A stretch of DNA of 35,845 bases from a virus (Duplodnaviria > Heunggongvirae > Uroviricota > Caudoviricetes): the IMG/VR virus record IMGVR_UViG_2671180473_000015; one strand, written 5' to 3'. The translations under genes were made by a program, and so were the position numbers. Positions 3,929 to 35,502 of this stretch are shown here, in pieces. The notes beneath the pieces were generated by a model. That model was not told the origin of the DNA, ran no database searches, and was given only the letters and a program-made list of their open reading frames with translations. Each line of letters opens with the position of its first letter. Positions within the stretch are counted from its first letter, which is position 1.

Positions 3929-3978
3929 AAAAAGAGCGGTACCAGCCGGAAGCAAGTGTACAAACTGGTACCGCCAAA
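3929..3978 (-). ncRNA. DicF-like small RNA candidate ending in an intrinsic terminator
   Basis: Minus-strand sequence TTTGGCGGTACCAGTTT...CTGGTACCGCTCTTTTT: an 11-bp stem (GGCGGTACCAG / CTGGTACCGCT, one G-U) followed by a U-run. Its 5' half closely resembles the core of DicF (TTTGGCGGTATCAGTTT) as I recall it. Located in the early-left operon downstream of the repressor gene, as DicF is in Qin. The 5' end is not determinable. Confidence 0.4.
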
Positions 3979-4406
3979 GCAGTGGCTGTTGTGGTGACCG
4001 GTGCTGATCTCCGGCTTGCGGTTATTTCAGACTCTCACGGGCGTTTAATTGCCCCGCCGAACAGCTCTTTTCCGCATTAGCTGCAATGTCTTTCGCGCAT
4101 CAGCCTGCGCATTCACCACAACGCTGAGAGCACTTAGCCAGTTACGGCACCACACTTTGTCGCGGTTCCATAAATGTCCTCATCGTTGCACCCTGGTCTC
4201 TTCCCAGGCGTCAAACCGAATCGCCACGCTGGTTAGGCGTCTTATCAGCATCATCATTGACTTGCACATTCCGGCTACCTGGTTTGTTTGCCCGAGCAAG
4301 GAGTGGATTGTCCCCTTTAACGTCCCCAGACCGCTAACGACGCATGTGCCATACGCCGTGTTACAACCAAATTTTGTTTAATCTTGCCTGTGCTGTGTTT
4401 CTTTTA

Positions 4407-10598: not shown

Positions 10599-11594
10599 GT
10601 GACCGTGAGAGCACTACTGACCCCTGAAATTGCCCCGCGTATGGGGATCGTATTGTTCAGGCCAGGTTCAGAGCTGATGCCCCTGTTTATGCAGGGGCGT
10701 GTTCTGCTGGAGCCTGAGCCGGAACGTTATTCATCTTTCGCCAGTGGTGCCGTTCCGGCGGCATCACAACCGCTGGCGGATGATCCTGCCGTTCGGGCCG
10801 TGTTCCGCAATGAGGCAGTGATCCGTCGTGCTGGTGGCGTGGAATGTCTTGAAAGCTGGTTACTTCGTGAAAAAGGCTGCCAGTGGCCTCATTCCGACTG
10901 GCACAGCGAGAACATGACCACAATGCGACACGCTCCGGGCGCAATCCGTCTGTGCTGGCACTGCGATAACCAGCTGCGCGATCAGTTCACGGAACGGCTG
11001 GAATCAATGGCAACGGATAACTGTGCCCGCTGGGTGTTGTCTGTTGTGCGTCGGGATCTCGGTTTTGATGATAGTCACGTTGTGACAATGCCGGAACTGT
11101 GCTGGTGGCTGATTCGTAATGACCTGGCGGATGCCTTACCGGAAAGTGCAGCCCGTAAGGCACTGAGATTACCAAAGCCTGTTGTGCCGTCTGTCACCCG
11201 GGAAAGTGACCTTGTGCCTTCGGTTCCTGCCACCAGCATCATCCAGGATAAGGCAAAAAAGGTGCTGGCGCTGAAAGTGGATCCGGAGTCGCCGGAGTCT
11301 TTTATGTTACGCCCAAAACGCCGCCGCTGGGTTAATGAAAAGTACACGCGCTGGGTTAAGACACAGCCGTGTGCATGTTGTGGAAAGCCTGCTGATGATC
11401 CCCACCACCTGATAGGCCACGGTCAGGGTGGAATGGGTACAAAAGCGCATGACCTCTTTGTGTTGCCTTTGTGCAGAAAGCATCACGACGAGCTGCATGC
11501 GGATACCGTGGCATTTGAAGAGAAGTATGGCTCCCAGCTGGAGCTGATATTTCGTTTTATCGATCGTGCGCTGGCAATTGGCGTATTGGCGTAA
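10599..11594 (+). CDS. DUF968 / YdfU-like protein with C-terminal Cys/His zinc-binding (HNH-like) motif
   Basis: 331-aa ORF with GTG start at 10599 (alternative GTG at 10605). C-terminus CACCGKPADDPHHLIGHGQGG...CRKHHDELH. Family assigned from memory. Confidence 0.55.
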   Translation: MTVRALLTPEIAPRMGIVLFRPGSELMPLFMQGRVLLEPEPERYSSFASGAVPAASQPLADDPAVRAVFRNEAVIRRAGGVECLESWLLREKGCQWPHSDWHSENMTTMRHAPGAIRLCWHCDNQLRDQFTERLESMATDNCARWVLSVVRRDLGFDDSHVVTMPELCWWLIRNDLADALPESAARKALRLPKPVVPSVTRESDLVPSVPATSIIQDKAKKVLALKVDPESPESFMLRPKRRRWVNEKYTRWVKTQPCACCGKPADDPHHLIGHGQGGMGTKAHDLFVLPLCRKHHDELHADTVAFEEKYGSQLELIFRFIDRALAIGVLA

Positions 11595-11607
11595 GTGGAG
11601 AACGAGC

Positions 11608-12360
11608 ATGAACCTTGAAGCCTTACCAAAATATTACTCCCCAAAATCTCCAAAATTGAGCGATGACGCACCGGCGACAGGCTCAGGTGGTTTAACGATT
11701 ACGGATGTGATGGCTGCGCAGGGGATGGTGCAGTCGAAAGCACCGCTTGGGTTTGCCTTATTCCTGGCAAAAGTTGGTGTTCAGGATCCTCAATTTGCGA
11801 TTGAAGGTCTGCTCAATTACGCGATGGCACTGGATAACCCGACATTGAACAAATTGAGTGAAGAAACCCGGTTACAGATCATCCCTTACCTTGTGAATTT
11901 TGCCTTTGCTGATTATTCCAGGTCTGCGGCAAGTAAGGCTCGCTGTGAGCATTGTGCTGGTACTGGATTTCATAATGTATTGCGCGAAGTGGTGAAACAC
12001 TCCAGAAGCGGGGAATCTGTTATCAAGGAAGAGTGGGTGAAGGAACTATGTCAGCATTGCCATGGTAAGGGAGAAGTCAGCACAGCGTGCAGAGGGTGTA
12101 AGGGTAAAGGTATTGTCCTGGATGAAAAAAGAACCCGGCTTCATGGTGTGCCTGTTTATAAGATTTGTGGGCGTTGCAATGGCAACCGGTTTAGCCGTTT
12201 ACCAACCACACTGGCGCGGCATCATGTCCAGAAACTGGTACCGGACCTGACGGATTATCAGTGGTACAAAGGATATGCAGACGTTATTAATAAACTGGTT
12301 ACAAAGTGCTGGCAGGAAGAAGCGTATGCTGAATCGCAATTGAGAAAAGTGACAAGATAG
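11608..12360 (+). CDS. Q: late-gene antitermination protein Q
   Basis: 250-aa product from the ATG at 11608 (SD GGAG 7 nt upstream). Paired CxxC zinc-finger motifs (CEHCAGTGF, CQHCHGKGE, CRGCKGKG, CGRCNGNRF) typical of Q antiterminators. Immediately upstream of a promoter-plus-terminator unit. Confidence 0.8.
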   Translation: MNLEALPKYYSPKSPKLSDDAPATGSGGLTITDVMAAQGMVQSKAPLGFALFLAKVGVQDPQFAIEGLLNYAMALDNPTLNKLSEETRLQIIPYLVNFAFADYSRSAASKARCEHCAGTGFHNVLREVVKHSRSGESVIKEEWVKELCQHCHGKGEVSTACRGCKGKGIVLDEKRTRLHGVPVYKICGRCNGNRFSRLPTTLARHHVQKLVPDLTDYQWYKGYADVINKLVTKCWQEEAYAESQLRKVTR

Positions 12361-12391
12361 ATAATTTTCGCCGAAGATGTCGACGTGATAC

Positions 12392-12420
12392 TTGCATTTT
12401 TCAAAAAATATGGATAAGAT
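12392..12420 (+). promoter_or_regulatory. PR'-like late promoter (candidate Q-utilisation region)
   Basis: -35 TTGCAT (12392-12397), 17-nt spacer, -10 TAAGAT (12415-12420). Lies between the Q stop and the tR'-like terminator, as in lambda. Confidence 0.45.
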
Positions 12421-12463
12421 TTTCTCAACGATGGGCCTTGTATGTCTACCGTTGGTAAATGTC

Positions 12464-12490
12464 AAAAACCCGCCGCTGAGCGGGTTTTTT
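12464..12490 (+). terminator. tR'-like rho-independent terminator
   Basis: AAAAACCCGCCGCTGAGCGGGTTTTTTGTGCC: GC stem plus T-run about 45 nt downstream of the candidate late promoter. Confidence 0.7.
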
Positions 12491-12639
12491 GTGCCTGATG
12501 TCTCATGAAACTATGAAATGGATTGGTGCGTTAAACATTTTTTCTTATTATCTTTTAGATTTTGGAGAGATGGTTAACGTCTGTATTCCAGAAACTCGAT
12601 GGTTATTTAATAAATTAGTTTCAATGATGCTTCTAGGTT

Positions 12640-13065
12640 ATGACTGTAATGAAAAAGGTATTAATAGCAGCGATAGGTTTTTGTTTAGTTGGTTGTGCAG
12701 GTATGAAATTACCTGAGTATTCGCAAGTTAAAGCAAGTCCGTATTATACAGATTGCCGTGCGTTTGCCATGGATGTTTATAAAAATGATGGATACAGCAA
12801 AATTGCGAAAACTACTATCCTTAGCATGGATGATGTGAAAGCTAGATATATTGTGACAGGGTGTGTAGTTGCTATGGGGAAAAACACTGTAGAGGAAATC
12901 AAAGCTGATCTCTCTGCTAAAGGGAGTTCTTTTGGGCTTATCAGTGGAGCTTGTTCTAGTGCGGCATGTCGGGTTGATGTAGAGCAGCAAATGAACGCTT
13001 ATGTACTTGGTAGTTATTATGCTGCAAATAAAAAATTCCCGGATAAAATGAAAGCAGAGTTTTAA
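12640..13065 (+). CDS. lipoprotein encoded by an AT-rich moron between Q and the lysis genes
   Basis: 141-aa ORF. Signal peptide with lipobox (MKKVLIAAIGFCLVGCAG; Cys in LVGC). Several further Cys residues. The flanking region 12490-13140 is markedly AT-rich and bounded by two near-identical terminators. Confidence 0.65.
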   Translation: MTVMKKVLIAAIGFCLVGCAGMKLPEYSQVKASPYYTDCRAFAMDVYKNDGYSKIAKTTILSMDDVKARYIVTGCVVAMGKNTVEEIKADLSAKGSSFGLISGACSSAACRVDVEQQMNAYVLGSYYAANKKFPDKMKAEF

Positions 13066-13142
13066 GCAAACCTTGTTTTCGATTATATGTCGAAGATAAA
13101 TGTTAGTAACGGCATAATAAGTAAATATATAGCTGTGATAGC

Positions 13143-13168
13143 AACCCGCCACTGAGCGGGTTTTTTGT
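13143..13168 (+). terminator. second tR'-like terminator (near-duplicate of 12464-12490)
   Basis: CAACCCGCCACTGAGCGGGTTTTTTGTACCC: same stem and T-run as the terminator at 12464-12490 with two substitutions. Confidence 0.7.
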
Positions 13169-13288
13169 ACCCGTAAACTTGGTGCAGTACAGTAAACACG
13201 CTGGTGGTCGTGAATACTGACTTTTTATCTTGCTGGCTTTTTAGACAAGAGTTATTGGTATGTCATGTTAACCAGAAGGGAAAAAGAC

Positions 13289-13492
13289 ATGCTAAAACAG
13301 CAAGATATGACAGAAACCGCCGCCGCAGTCCTTCATTTCTTACCTGCTGACAAGTGGGTAACGCCACGCATGATGACGAGAACTACCGGAGTAAGCGAAG
13401 CCCGGTGCCAGTTAATACTGACTCAGTTAGTTCTGGCGGGTCTGGCGAAGGATAACGGCGGGTACGGGAATAAATTCAGACGCTGCCAGTAA
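13289..13492 (+). CDS. small hypothetical protein (possible winged-helix protein)
   Basis: 67-aa product from an ATG with an AAGGGA SD-like sequence upstream (track ORF 13265..13492). No recognised family. Directly upstream of the second methyltransferase gene. Confidence 0.35.
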   Translation: MLKQQDMTETAAAVLHFLPADKWVTPRMMTRTTGVSEARCQLILTQLVLAGLAKDNGGYGNKFRRCQ

Positions 13493-13642
13493 TGGCGGTT
13501 TCCTGCTGTGAAAATGGGCGGCTGGTGGGTGTTGGTAGCACCTGCCAGCCATTCGCTCATGCTTACTGGTCACAAGCGAACCACGGCCCACTGCTTTAGC
13601 GCAAAAGCAGAGTGAGCCTACCAGAGTTACGCTTACTGATCC

Positions 13643-14695
13643 ATGAAAAATACTGTAAAAATAAACAGTGTTGATTTAATCAACGCTGATTGCCTGCATT
13701 TTATTCAGTCCCTGCCTGATGATTCCATTGACCTGATTGTTACCGATCCGCCTTACTTCAAGGTGAAACCCAACGGTTGGGACAATCAGTGGAAAGGGGA
13801 CGAAGATTACCTTAAGTGGCTGGACCACTGTCTGGCCCAGTTCTGGCGGGTGTTGAAACCTGCCGGAAGCCTTTACCTGTTCTGTGGGCATCGCCTGGCA
13901 TCTGATATTGAGATCATGATGCGTGAACGTTTCAACGTGCTTAACCATATCATCTGGGCGAAGCCGTCCGGACGTTGGAATGGGTGTAATAAAGAAAGTC
14001 TGCGCGCATATTTTCCTGCCACAGAGCGCGTTCTGTTTGCTGAACATTACCAGGGGCCATATCGCGGCAAAAGTGACGGCTATGCGGCAAAAGAAAGGGA
14101 ACTCAAACAGCACATAATGGCACCGCTGATATCGTATTTCAGGGATGCTCGTGCCGAACTGGGTATAACGGCAAAACAAATTGCCGAAGCCACAGGTAAG
14201 AAAAATATGGTTTCCCACTGGTTTGGTGCCAGTCAGTGGCAGTTGCCGAATGAGGCTGACTATCGGAAGTTACAGGCACTGTTTTCCCGTATAGCGGCAG
14301 AGAAGTTTCAGGAACAACAACTGGAACAACCACACCACCAGCTGGTGGCATCTTATGATTCACTGAATCGTAAATATTCTGAATTGCTGGATGAGTTTAA
14401 ATCTCTCCGGCGCTATTTCTCCGTATCAGTCTCCGTGCCTTATACCGATGTCTGGATGCATAAACCCGTTCAGTTCTACCCGGGGAAACATCCGTGTGAG
14501 AAACCGGCGGATATGCTCAGGCAAATAATCAATGCCAGTAGTCGACCAGGTGATCTGGTTGCTGATTTTTTTATGGGATCCGGTTCCACAATAAAAGCAG
14601 CAATGGCGCTGGGGCGTCGGGCCTTAGGTGTTGAGCTTGAGTCAGAGCGGTTTAATCAGACAGTGAAAGAGATAAACGAGCTGGTGGGGAAATAA
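13643..14695 (+). CDS. DNA methyltransferase, N4/N6 beta-class (DPPY motif before FxGxG motif)
   Basis: 350-aa ORF. Catalytic motif IVTDPPYF near the N-terminus and SAM-binding DFFMGSGST near the C-terminus (PF01555-type order). No cognate endonuclease in the window. Confidence 0.85.
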
Positions 14696-14697
14696 TC

Positions 14698-14725
14698 TGG
14701 TGGCCACGTCAGGTGGCCTTTTTAT
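14698..14725 (+). terminator. rho-independent terminator after the methyltransferase gene
   Basis: Stem GGCCAC / GTGGCC with loop GTCAG, followed by TTTTT. Confidence 0.5.
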
Positions 14726-14762
14726 TTCCATTACACAGCACCCGCATCTGCGAGGTGGGGTT

Positions 14763-14900
14763 ATGAAATCCATGGATAAGTTAACAACGGGTGTCGCCTA
14801 TGGCACCTCAGCAGGTAGTGCCGGGTACTGGTTTTTACAGTTGCTCGATAAAGTCACGCCCTCACAGTGGGCGGCAATAGGTGTGCTGGGTAGTCTGGTA
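14763..14900 (+). CDS. S: S21-type pinholin (class II holin), 3' end lost in an N-run
   Basis: ATG at 14763 with [57 protein letters not shown] matches phage 21 S21 ([46 protein letters not shown]) from memory, including the dual-start Met1/Met4 motif. The true stop lies within the N-run (expected near 14978 if 71 aa). Confidence 0.8.
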
Positions 14901-15140
14901 NNNNNNNNNNNNNNNNNNNNNNNNNNNNNNNNNNNNNNNNNNNNNNNNNNNNNNNNNNNNNNNNNNNNNNNNNNNNNNNNNNNNNNNNNNNNNNNNNNNN
15001 NNNNNNNNNNNNNNNNNNNNNNNNNNNNNNNNNNNNNNNNNNNNNNNNNNNNNNNNNNNNNNNNNNNNNNNNNNNNNNNNNNNNNNNNNNNNNNNNNNNN
15101 NNNNNNNNNNNNNNNNNNNNNNNNNNNNNNNNNNNNNNNN
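14901..15140. other. N-run (240 nt) - assembly gap or masked sequence
   Basis: Continuous n characters; removes the holin 3' end and the holin-endolysin junction. Confidence 0.95.
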
Positions 15141-29886: not shown

Positions 29887-30545
29887 ATGCAGGATATTCC
29901 ACAGGAAACACATCATGAGACGACACGCCTCACTCAGTCAGCCCAGGTGGTGCTCTGGGAAATCGATCTGACAGAGGTCGGTGGAGAACGTTATTTTTTC
30001 TGTAATGAGCAGAACGAAAAAGGTGAGCCGGTCACCTGGCAGGGGCGACAGTATCAGGCGTATCCCATTCAGGGGACGGGATTTGAACTGAACGGCAAGG
30101 GCAGTGCTGCCCGTCCGNGGCGGAAGATCTGCAGAGTCTGGTCGGCGGAACGGTGGTCCGGCGTAAGGTTTACGCCCGTTTTCTGGATGCGGTGAACTTC
30201 GTCAACGGAAACAGTGACGCCGATCCGGAGCAGGAGGTGATCAGCCGCTGGCGCATCGAGCAGTGCAGCGAACTGAGCGCGGTGAGTGCCTCTTTTGTAC
30301 TGTCCACGCCGACGGAAACGGACGGTGCCGTTTTTCCGGGGCGCATCATGCTTGCTAATACCTGCACCTGGACCTATCGCGGCGATGAGTGCGGTTATCA
30401 CGGTCCGGCGGTCGCGGATGAATATGATCAGCCGACGTCCGATATCACGAAGGATAAATGCAGCAAATGCCTGAGCGGCTGTAAGTTTCGCAATAACGTC
30501 GGCAACTTTGGCGGCTTCCTTTCCATTAACAAACTTTCGCAGTAA
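29887..30545 (+). CDS. L: minor tail protein L, reading frame broken at a single N (likely collapsed assembly gap)
   Basis: N-terminal part (track ORF 29887..30195) and C-terminal part (30153..30545) both match lambda L almost residue-for-residue from memory. About 14 codons expected between ...GKGSAARP and AEDLQSLVGG are missing exactly at the n at 30118. Confidence 0.75.
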
Positions 30546-31294: not shown

Positions 31295-31896
31295 AAACGG
31301 GGTCCGAAGCCATCCGGGCGCTGGCCATGCAGATCCCGGCGTTTCGTCAGAAACTGAATGAGGGCTGGTATCAGGTGCGCATTGCCGGGCGTGATGCAGG
31401 CGAAAATGAATTATCTGCCCGTCTTAATGAGCCGCTGGCAAATGGTGCCGTGATCCACATCGTGCCGCGTCTGGCGGGAGCTAAAAGTGGCGGTGTGTTT
31501 CAGGTGGTGCTTGGGGCGGCGCTGATTGCGGTGGCATGGTGGAACCCTGTGGGCTGGCTGGGGNNNNNNNNNNNNNNNNNNNNNNNNNNNNNNNNNNNNN
31601 NNNNNNNNNNNNNNNNNNNNNNNNNNNNNNNNNNNNNNNNNNNNNNNNNNNNNNNNNNNNNNNNNNNNNNNNNNNNNNNNNNNNNNNNNNNNNNNNNNNN
31701 NNNNNNNNNNNNNNNNNNNNNNNNNNNNNNNNNNNNNNNNNNNNNNNNNNNNNNNNNNNNNNNNNNNNNNNNNNNNNNNNNNNNNNNNNNNNNNNNNNNN
31801 NNNNNNNNNNNNNNNNNNNNNNNNNNNNNNNNNNNNNNNNNNNTCAGCACGGCAGACGAAGGGGATGGTGGTCAGGTTGTGGTGATTGGTCGCTGA
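31192..31896 (+). CDS. I: tail assembly protein I (interrupted by an N-run)
   Basis: Starts MAATHTLPLASPGMARICLYGDLQRFGRRIDLRV as in lambda I. Overlaps the 3' end of K in another frame, as in lambda. The middle is lost in the N-run 31564-31843. Ends ...STADEGDGGQVVVIGR. Confidence 0.75.
   Translation: MAATHTLPLASPGMARICLYGDLQRFGRRIDLRVKTGSEAIRALAMQIPAFRQKLNEGWYQVRIAGRDAGENELSARLNEPLANGAVIHIVPRLAGAKSGGVFQVVLGAALIAVAWWNPVGWLGXXXXXXXXXXXXXXXXXXXXXXXXXXXXXXXXXXXXXXXXXXXXXXXXXXXXXXXXXXXXXXXXXXXXXXXXXXXXXXXXXXXXXXXXXXXXXXSTADEGDGGQVVVIGR
31564..31843. other. N-run (280 nt) - assembly gap or masked sequence
   Basis: Continuous n characters inside gene I. Confidence 0.95.

Positions 31897-31956: not shown

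Positions 31957-35502
<3,546 letters not shown>

Follow-up and report, generated by a model that had tools for sequence, protein, structure and literature searches.

We analysed the whole of the IMG/VR virus record IMGVR_UViG_2671180473_000015, a stretch of 35,845 nt that we call the window. This 35.8-kb window is a lambda-like siphovirus prophage of Escherichia coli, in which the genes for the terminase, portal, tape measure and J-type tail tip all lie downstream of the region described here. Just behind the late antiterminator gene Q, the prophage carries an AT-rich cassette with a single lipoprotein gene and a terminator at either end. We consider it likely that the cassette is a moron, that is, a single-gene cargo sitting exactly at the tR' site of a lambdoid E. 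coli prophage late operon, with a terminator on both sides. The features of the locus are listed below (aa, amino acids; GC, guanine plus cytosine; ORF, open reading frame).

11608 to 12360, plus strand: gene for the late antiterminator Q, 250 aa (Pfam PF03589, Antitermination protein Q, E 4.7e-54).
12392 to 12420, plus strand: late promoter PR', with −35 TTGCAT (12392-12397), a 17-nt spacer and −10 TAAGAT (12415-12420), from an in-register alignment with lambda PR'.
12424 to 12435, plus strand: the CTCAACGATGGG block, 12/12 identical to the start of the lambda PR' transcript.
12467 to 12495, plus strand: T1 (tR'), AACCCGCCGCTGAGCGGGTTTTTTGTGCC, left copy of a 29-nt direct repeat and first intrinsic terminator after PR'; hairpin of −13.9 kcal/mol plus U-run.
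12496 to 13142, plus strand: AT-rich cargo block of 647 bp, 35.7% GC against 51.6% in the rest of the window, absent from the empty-site phages.
12523 to 12551, plus strand: promoter-like element of the cassette, TTGGTG, a 17-nt spacer and TATTAT; a consensus-level match whose hexamers are kept in the Salmonella cassette.
12649 to 13065, plus strand: lipoprotein gene; precursor of 138 aa (MKKVLIAAIGFCLVG up to the lipobox Cys, then Ala at +2 and four further invariant Cys), phrog_4748, E 7.5e-91.
13143 to 13171, plus strand: T2, AACCCGCCACTGAGCGGGTTTTTTGTACC, right copy of the 29-nt direct repeat; hairpin of −13.3 kcal/mol plus U-run, called by a terminator scan.
13265 to 14695, plus strand: 75-aa ORF (phrog_331) and then a 350-aa DNA methyltransferase (Pfam PF01555); downstream context outside the cassette.

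The start of Q at 11608 was set by the annotated Q genes at the homologous position in phages SfV, Ayreon and vB_EcoM-720R4 (hereafter 720R4). The −35 hexamer of PR' begins 32 nt past the Q stop codon. An earlier note, made from the DNA sequence alone, had proposed these two hexamers and their 17-nt spacing as a late promoter, and they align in register with PR' in lambda (positions 43800-45300 were used), where TTGACT stands for TTGCAT at −35 and TAAATT for TAAGAT at −10. In lambda, the CTCAACGATGGG block is the start of the late transcript and holds the −10-like AACGAT that pauses sigma70-RNA polymerase for Q loading. By analogy with lambda, the block in the window prophage may act as the PR' pause element, and transcription from PR' is predicted to start at about 12427. 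The arrangement is that of lambdoid late control: a sigma70 promoter right after Q, a promoter-proximal −10-like pause element, and an intrinsic terminator close behind PR', namely T1, which follows some 40 nt further on. The Q protein of the window belongs to PF03589, yet its initial transcribed block is identical to that of lambda, and the Q protein of phage PhiR40_1 matches the lambda-type family PF06530. Different Q types appear to have the promoter-proximal pause element in common.

T1 and T2 are identical at 27 of 29 bases and lie 676 bp apart from start to start, in agreement with the earlier description of two near-identical tR'-like terminators that differ by two bases. Each is a GC-rich hairpin followed by six U. 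A search with up to three mismatches found only these two copies of the motif in the whole window (0.00 expected, 100 shuffles). The T1 equivalent is annotated as a terminator in SfV and Ayreon, and the authors of the Ayreon record annotated both terminators and labelled the ORF hypothetical. A simple terminator scan reported T2 and missed T1, likely since A-U pairs extend the T1 stem into the T-run. T2 also forms the left edge of a conserved module of a small ORF and a methylase. We infer that read-through of T1 and T2 depends on Q.

The block between the terminators had been described as AT-rich and about 650 bp long, which its measured length and GC content confirm. It contains only one convincing ORF. 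Two other candidates were set aside as non-coding: ORF 12489-12716 (phrog_37626), which is annotated in some phages, shows frame-breaking indels of 1 and 2 nt against the Salmonella cassette, and the reading frame of an antisense 147-aa ORF at 12709-13152 is not kept open in homologues. An Rfam search of positions 11500-15000 gave no match near the gathering scores.

The lipoprotein start codon shared with Salmonella is the ATG at 12649 (MKKVL...), not 12640. The precursor has a basic n-region (MKK), a hydrophobic h-region (VLIAAIGFC) and a lipobox, LVG-C, that fits the pattern [LVI][ASTVI][GAS]C. The lipobox Cys is invariant in 8/8 family members and is also found in the Serratia and IMG/VR homologues. 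Together with four more, it makes up five Cys that are invariant across the family, which bears out the earlier reading of a Cys-rich lipoprotein. The residue at +2 is Ala or Ser in all members and never Asp. Under the E. coli Lol rule, the lack of Asp at +2 predicts sorting to the outer membrane. The product is thus predicted to be a Lol-sorted outer-membrane lipoprotein whose helical domain, about 120 aa long, points into the periplasm, where the four non-lipobox Cys probably form two disulfides. An AlphaFold2 model built from an 8-sequence alignment is a helical bundle (mean predicted local distance difference test score, pLDDT, 79.3; predicted template modelling score, pTM, 0.75). Purifying selection on the gene is strong, with a ratio of nonsynonymous to synonymous substitution rates (dN/dS) of 0.07-0.12 against the Salmonella homologues and synonymous sites near saturation.

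Searches with the lipoprotein against Pfam, NCBIfam and PDB sequences gave no match, and the only significant PHROGs match was phrog_4748, which is in the category function unknown. Among the Pfam, NCBIfam and PHROGs profiles, none for Bor/Iss, Cor, Llp, Rz1 or a lysis accessory matched. The PADLOC defence profiles yielded 0 families at E up to 0.1, and fold comparison of the model gave no match, including none to known immunity proteins. Literature searches with the protein accession, with combinations of lipoprotein, Q and moron, and for the Stx2k phage found no description of the gene. The earlier note had allowed that the product might turn out to be a known conserved lysis accessory protein, which is not the case. 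Behind the methyltransferase gene the window encodes a holin (PF04971), a lysozyme (PF00959) and Rz (PF03245), a lysis set that is complete without the lipoprotein. Since the window has this set of its own and SfV is viable without the gene, the lipoprotein is not a lysis component. The gene is also found outside lysis regions and outside phages.

The cassette is cleanly absent from two collinear relatives, which have the same Q and downstream genes as the window. In pairwise BLAST with SfV, the left arm (96.4% identity) reaches window position 12501 and the right arm (91.4%) sets in at 13143; both cover the same 37 bp of SfV, at a single terminator, with no cassette. Phage 720R4 shows the same pattern (arms of 96.4% and 98.1%); in it, a lone terminator joins the left flank of the T1 side to the right flank of the T2 side. 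The annotated order in both phages is Q, (terminator), small ORF, 1053-bp methylase and holin. These are the clean single-terminator junctions that the earlier note had proposed to look for in related phages, and they support its suggestion of a cassette inserted at tR'. The terminator of 720R4 is T2-type throughout (loop A, GTACC tail), and that of SfV is T1-type in loop and tail. All cassette loci for which flanks were available on both sides have both terminators. The same note had named two terminators without a cargo gene as an arrangement that would tell against insertion, and no such locus was found.

Both states occur among 5426 complete E. coli genomes. The cassette (inner 641 bp) is held by 215 of them, always chromosomal, full-length and at least 95% identical. 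A contiguous empty junction was found in 186, using a 161-bp query across the 720R4 junction that is too short to bridge pieces split by the cassette. More than 1000 further genomes match only positions 1-97/99 or only positions 69-161 of this query. Because these left-only and right-only matches each include the terminator, the T1/T2 hairpin is a mosaic joint at which left (Q/PR') and right modules are reshuffled. Other loci show such joints as well. Homology to the window stops at 13166, 13207, 13277 or 13464 in IMG/VR loci; strain IHE3034 has tRNA genes after T2, and another genome has a single terminator followed by a methylase remnant and tRNA genes. In PhiR40_1 and the cdtI phage, which have a lambda-type Q (PF06530), homology to the window begins exactly at the first T2 base.

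Among phages, mEp460, Ayreon, fifteen Stx2c phages, phiSTEC1575-Stx2k and PhiR47_1 have the 1-kb cassette region at 97-100% identity. phiSTEC1575-Stx2k carries the cassette after Q and ahead of tRNA genes and stx2k, on the strand of stx2k, so that the likeness to the stx slot suggested earlier has a direct counterpart. Salmonella prophages carry the cassette behind a different Q (PF06530/DUF1133), preceded by the same T1 sequence and a homologous leader. There it is followed by a second terminator that is related but distinct, with a different loop and stem details, and then by a methylase remnant and the holin. In one Salmonella prophage (locus L007, 4540-4810), only a C-terminal remnant of the DNA methyltransferase lies beyond the second terminator, a sign that deletion or recombination has left a scar on the right-hand side of the terminator. 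The intact DNA methyltransferase gene of the window occupies 13643-14695.

The gene family itself, phrog_4748, is tiny. It amounted to 9 clusters in a word-indexed search of 5.8 billion proteins and to 8 hits when 1.84 billion representatives were searched exhaustively by profile; neither search returned annotated distant relatives. Members come from E. coli, Salmonella, Serratia, Buttiauxella and one unidentified metagenome read-run assembly. The gene has 39-45% GC in every host examined, and the host flanks have 44-57%, with 57% in Serratia. Its contexts differ widely: it adjoins vapBC in the early region in S. diarizonae, is carried on a Buttiauxella plasmid, and lies in chromosomal islets of Serratia, for example between emrB and an RNA methyltransferase gene. 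A distant homologue (P0015) lies amid insertion sequence, reverse-transcriptase and resolvase genes and has no partner gene. Outside the Q slot, the hairpins that follow the lipoprotein gene are unrelated to T1 and T2. We conclude that this is a genuine coding sequence under selection, which moves on its own among prophage sites, a plasmid and chromosomes.

A second small lipoprotein gene follows the homologue after about 10 nt in an IMG/VR phage (L061, 3437-3736) and on the Buttiauxella plasmid (L008, 4446-4745). It encodes 99 aa with an LSAC or LSGC lipobox and has no Pfam match. The pair may form a two-gene unit, which is missing in the E. coli cassette.

The slot between Q and the terminator also has other occupants. 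PhiR40_1 (L005, 1930-2376, minus strand) and the cdtI phage (L006, 979-1422) have a different AT-rich lipoprotein gene there, on the opposite strand between the PF06530 Q and a T2-type terminator. Its 148-aa product (MNKMTVLLLSATIISGC...) has no homology to the window lipoprotein and no Pfam match. The slot repeatedly holds unrelated lipoprotein cargo.

From these results we propose the following scheme. In Stx phages, lambda, 21, phi80, 82 and P22, transcription from PR' goes on constitutively and ends at tR' in lysogens, which yields a short RNA (PMC7547250). In a lysogen of the window prophage, constitutive PR' transcripts would likewise stop at T1, at about 12490, as an RNA of about 60-65 nt. 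Any lipoprotein made at this stage would come from a weak sigma70-like promoter of the cassette itself at 12523-12551, and T2 would end the cassette transcript ahead of the methylase and lysis genes. Upon induction, Q-modified RNA polymerase would pass T1 and T2, making the lipoprotein the first and probably an abundant late product. In Stx2c and Stx2k phages, it would be encoded upstream of stx on the late transcript. The cargo itself would have entered or been exchanged by recombination at the conserved terminator hairpin, the joint between modules. Since unrelated hairpins follow the gene at its other locations, T2 is best read as a site-derived copy of the phage's own tR' and not as a terminator brought by the gene.

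The cassette has the marks of a moron: clean absence in collinear relatives, atypical composition and a factor-independent terminator at its 3' end (T2, and also in Salmonella). The promoter is a candidate only. Its Salmonella counterpart, TTGGTA, an 18-nt spacer and TATCAT, scores 9/12 in the scan and has a different spacer sequence; the stretch from T1 to the start codon is 73% identical overall between the E. coli and Salmonella cassettes. That a terminator before the late genes is kept in both lineages, despite the differing Salmonella hairpin, argues indirectly for a transcription start inside the cassette. Several points weigh against the scheme as a whole. The −35 of the candidate promoter matches the consensus at 3/6 positions and falls under the scan threshold in the window, and conservation of the element is known from two lineages only. 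The insertion boundary is resolvable only to within the 29-nt repeat, and only sequence rules predict lipidation, sorting to the outer membrane and disulfides.

The empty sites could also be secondary deletions between the repeats. In that case the two-terminator state with the lipoprotein would be the older one, the empty junctions would stem from homologous recombination between the 29-nt repeats, and there would have been no recent insertion at tR'. The left flank of 720R4, T1-side and joined to a T2-type terminator, is what a left-edge crossover would leave, and the E. coli and Salmonella cassettes, 27% apart in nucleotide sequence, both have the two-terminator architecture, which is thus older than their divergence. 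We nevertheless think it improbable that the older state explains the locus: the cargo is foreign in composition (35.7% against 51.6% GC), the gene is also found in contexts and with terminators that are unrelated, more than 1000 genomes join the terminator to other left or right modules, and an original acquisition is still needed even if some copies were deleted. The compositional foreignness and independent mobility of the gene point to acquisition, and both gains and losses of the cassette have probably occurred. That the repeat and the ORF reflect chance or an assembly artefact is scarcely credible, given that 0/100 shuffles produced a second repeat copy, that the cassette is present at 95-100% identity in 215 complete genomes and about 20 sequenced phages, and that the gene is under strong purifying selection.

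The remaining doubts concern when the lipoprotein is made and what it does. It could be a purely late protein, with no cassette promoter active in the lysogen and expression through Q read-through, and act at or after lysis, for example by masking a receptor, as T5 Llp does, to keep progeny from being wasted on debris of lysed cells, or it could modulate the envelope before lysis. The gene is the first after PR'/tR' on the late strand, and the weakness of the candidate promoter favours this timing too. T2 would, however, be superfluous if the stretch from T1 to T2 were silent in lysogens, yet a terminator is kept in both cassette lineages. Some copies of the gene, namely those of an early region, a plasmid and Serratia chromosomes, are out of reach of Q read-through; cdtI, PhiR40_1 and Tritos share the tail module but do not have the gene, and the lysis set is complete without it. 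We regard exclusively late expression as unlikely. Much the same standing is given to a superinfection-exclusion or immunity factor that blocks a receptor or DNA entry, as Cor and Llp do, or neutralises a periplasm-acting toxin. A predicted outer-membrane lipoprotein with a disulfide-stabilised periplasmic domain would suit such a task, as would a gene that moves alone and is found in prophages, on a plasmid and in islets, and the recurrence of unrelated lipoprotein genes in the same slot of other phages. Against it stand the missing matches to PADLOC profiles, to known exclusion or immunity families and to immunity-protein folds, the lack of a linked effector gene and the lack of a tie to tail type. 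In broader terms, the lipoprotein might be an envelope-acting lysogenic-conversion factor that provides protection or exclusion at the outer membrane; this is our best guess, but a tentative one of low confidence that finds no support in homology.

A link to tail type, as expected for a Cor- or Llp-like protein, was weakly rejected in a comparison that left the J C-termini outside. The cdtI phage, PhiR40_1 and Tritos share the tail module of the window but lack the cassette, whereas the Stx2k phage has the cassette with a partly different tail region. This makes a Cor- or Llp-like role linked to the receptor that the phage itself uses slightly less likely.

The moron concept reportedly goes back to Juhala, Hendrix and colleagues, who are said to have drawn it from HK97 and HK022, with lambda bor and lom as examples. 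Like lambdoid morons, the cassette is present in only some collinear phages, is AT-rich, has a promoter-like element before the gene and an intrinsic terminator after it, and is dispensable for lytic growth, as SfV lacks it. Unlike them, it is flanked by a duplicated phage tR' (27/29) instead of an unrelated terminator, and its product is unrelated to Bor, Lom or any named moron product. The cassette also resembles the stx operons and tRNA genes of Stx phages in occupying the Q-to-S slot, behind PR'/tR' and before the lysis genes, where expression would rise with Q antitermination. It differs from stx in that its product is no toxin, its 3' terminator would insulate it and it lies nearer to PR'. 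As in lambda 6S RNA and StxS, PR' stands close to an intrinsic terminator and should give a constitutive short RNA in lysogens, but the RNA predicted here is about 60-65 nt, compared with 194 nt in lambda and 258 nt for the StxS precursor (PMC7547250), and it has no Rfam match.

Phage outer-membrane lipoproteins include Cor (phi80/N15/HK022), Llp (T5), Bor/Iss and Rz1, which are small and have a short signal peptide, a lipobox and no Asp at +2. The window lipoprotein shares these traits, but has no sequence or profile similarity to them and differs in its helical fold and four conserved Cys. The genes cor and llp adjoin tail or receptor-binding genes and Rz1 is embedded in Rz, whereas the window lipoprotein gene does neither. 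The architecture fits existing concepts, and the cassette is ordinary phage cargo and not a new kind of element. Its sequence is already in GenBank in several phages, labelled hypothetical.

As we read it, the locus is a clean, well-documented case of cargo added at the head of a lambdoid late operon, in which a terminator on each side would preserve both the silence of the prophage and the autonomy of the cargo. The lipoprotein gene is present in about 4% of complete E. coli genomes, including the extraintestinal pathogenic (ExPEC) strain IHE3034, and in Stx2c and Stx2k phages. In these phages the lipoprotein would be the first product of a transcript that also makes Shiga toxin. The value of the locus lies in a candidate gene for phenotype testing and not in a new principle. 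On a bolder reading, the gene would belong to a new family of mobile envelope factors with a narrow distribution, such as outer-membrane superinfection exclusion or orphan immunity proteins, expressed at a low level in lysogens and massively on induction, and in Stx2c and Stx2k phages on one transcript with stx. The tR' hairpin would, on this reading, act as a portable recombination joint through which unrelated cargo can be swapped into the first position of the late operon, such as the window lipoprotein gene, the non-homologous reverse-strand lipoprotein gene of PhiR40_1 and cdtI, tRNA genes and stx. We hold this to be rather improbable.

Elsewhere in the window, N runs at 14901-15140, 31564-31843, 32455-32681 and 34451-34666 and a single N at 30118 were noted. 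The holin gene (PF04971, P21 holin S type) and the tail-tip genes are partly hidden by these runs, across which ORF calls are unreliable. The ArcA-modulated, 193-nt small RNA sRNA-17 was described from an mEp460-like prophage of E. coli K1 RS218 (PMC7719688). It was considered as an occupant of the intergenic region downstream of Q and ruled out, because both of its full-length primers match the window exactly at 3930-4123 on the plus strand. The window prophage is thus a carrier of the sRNA-17 locus, which is unrelated to the cassette.

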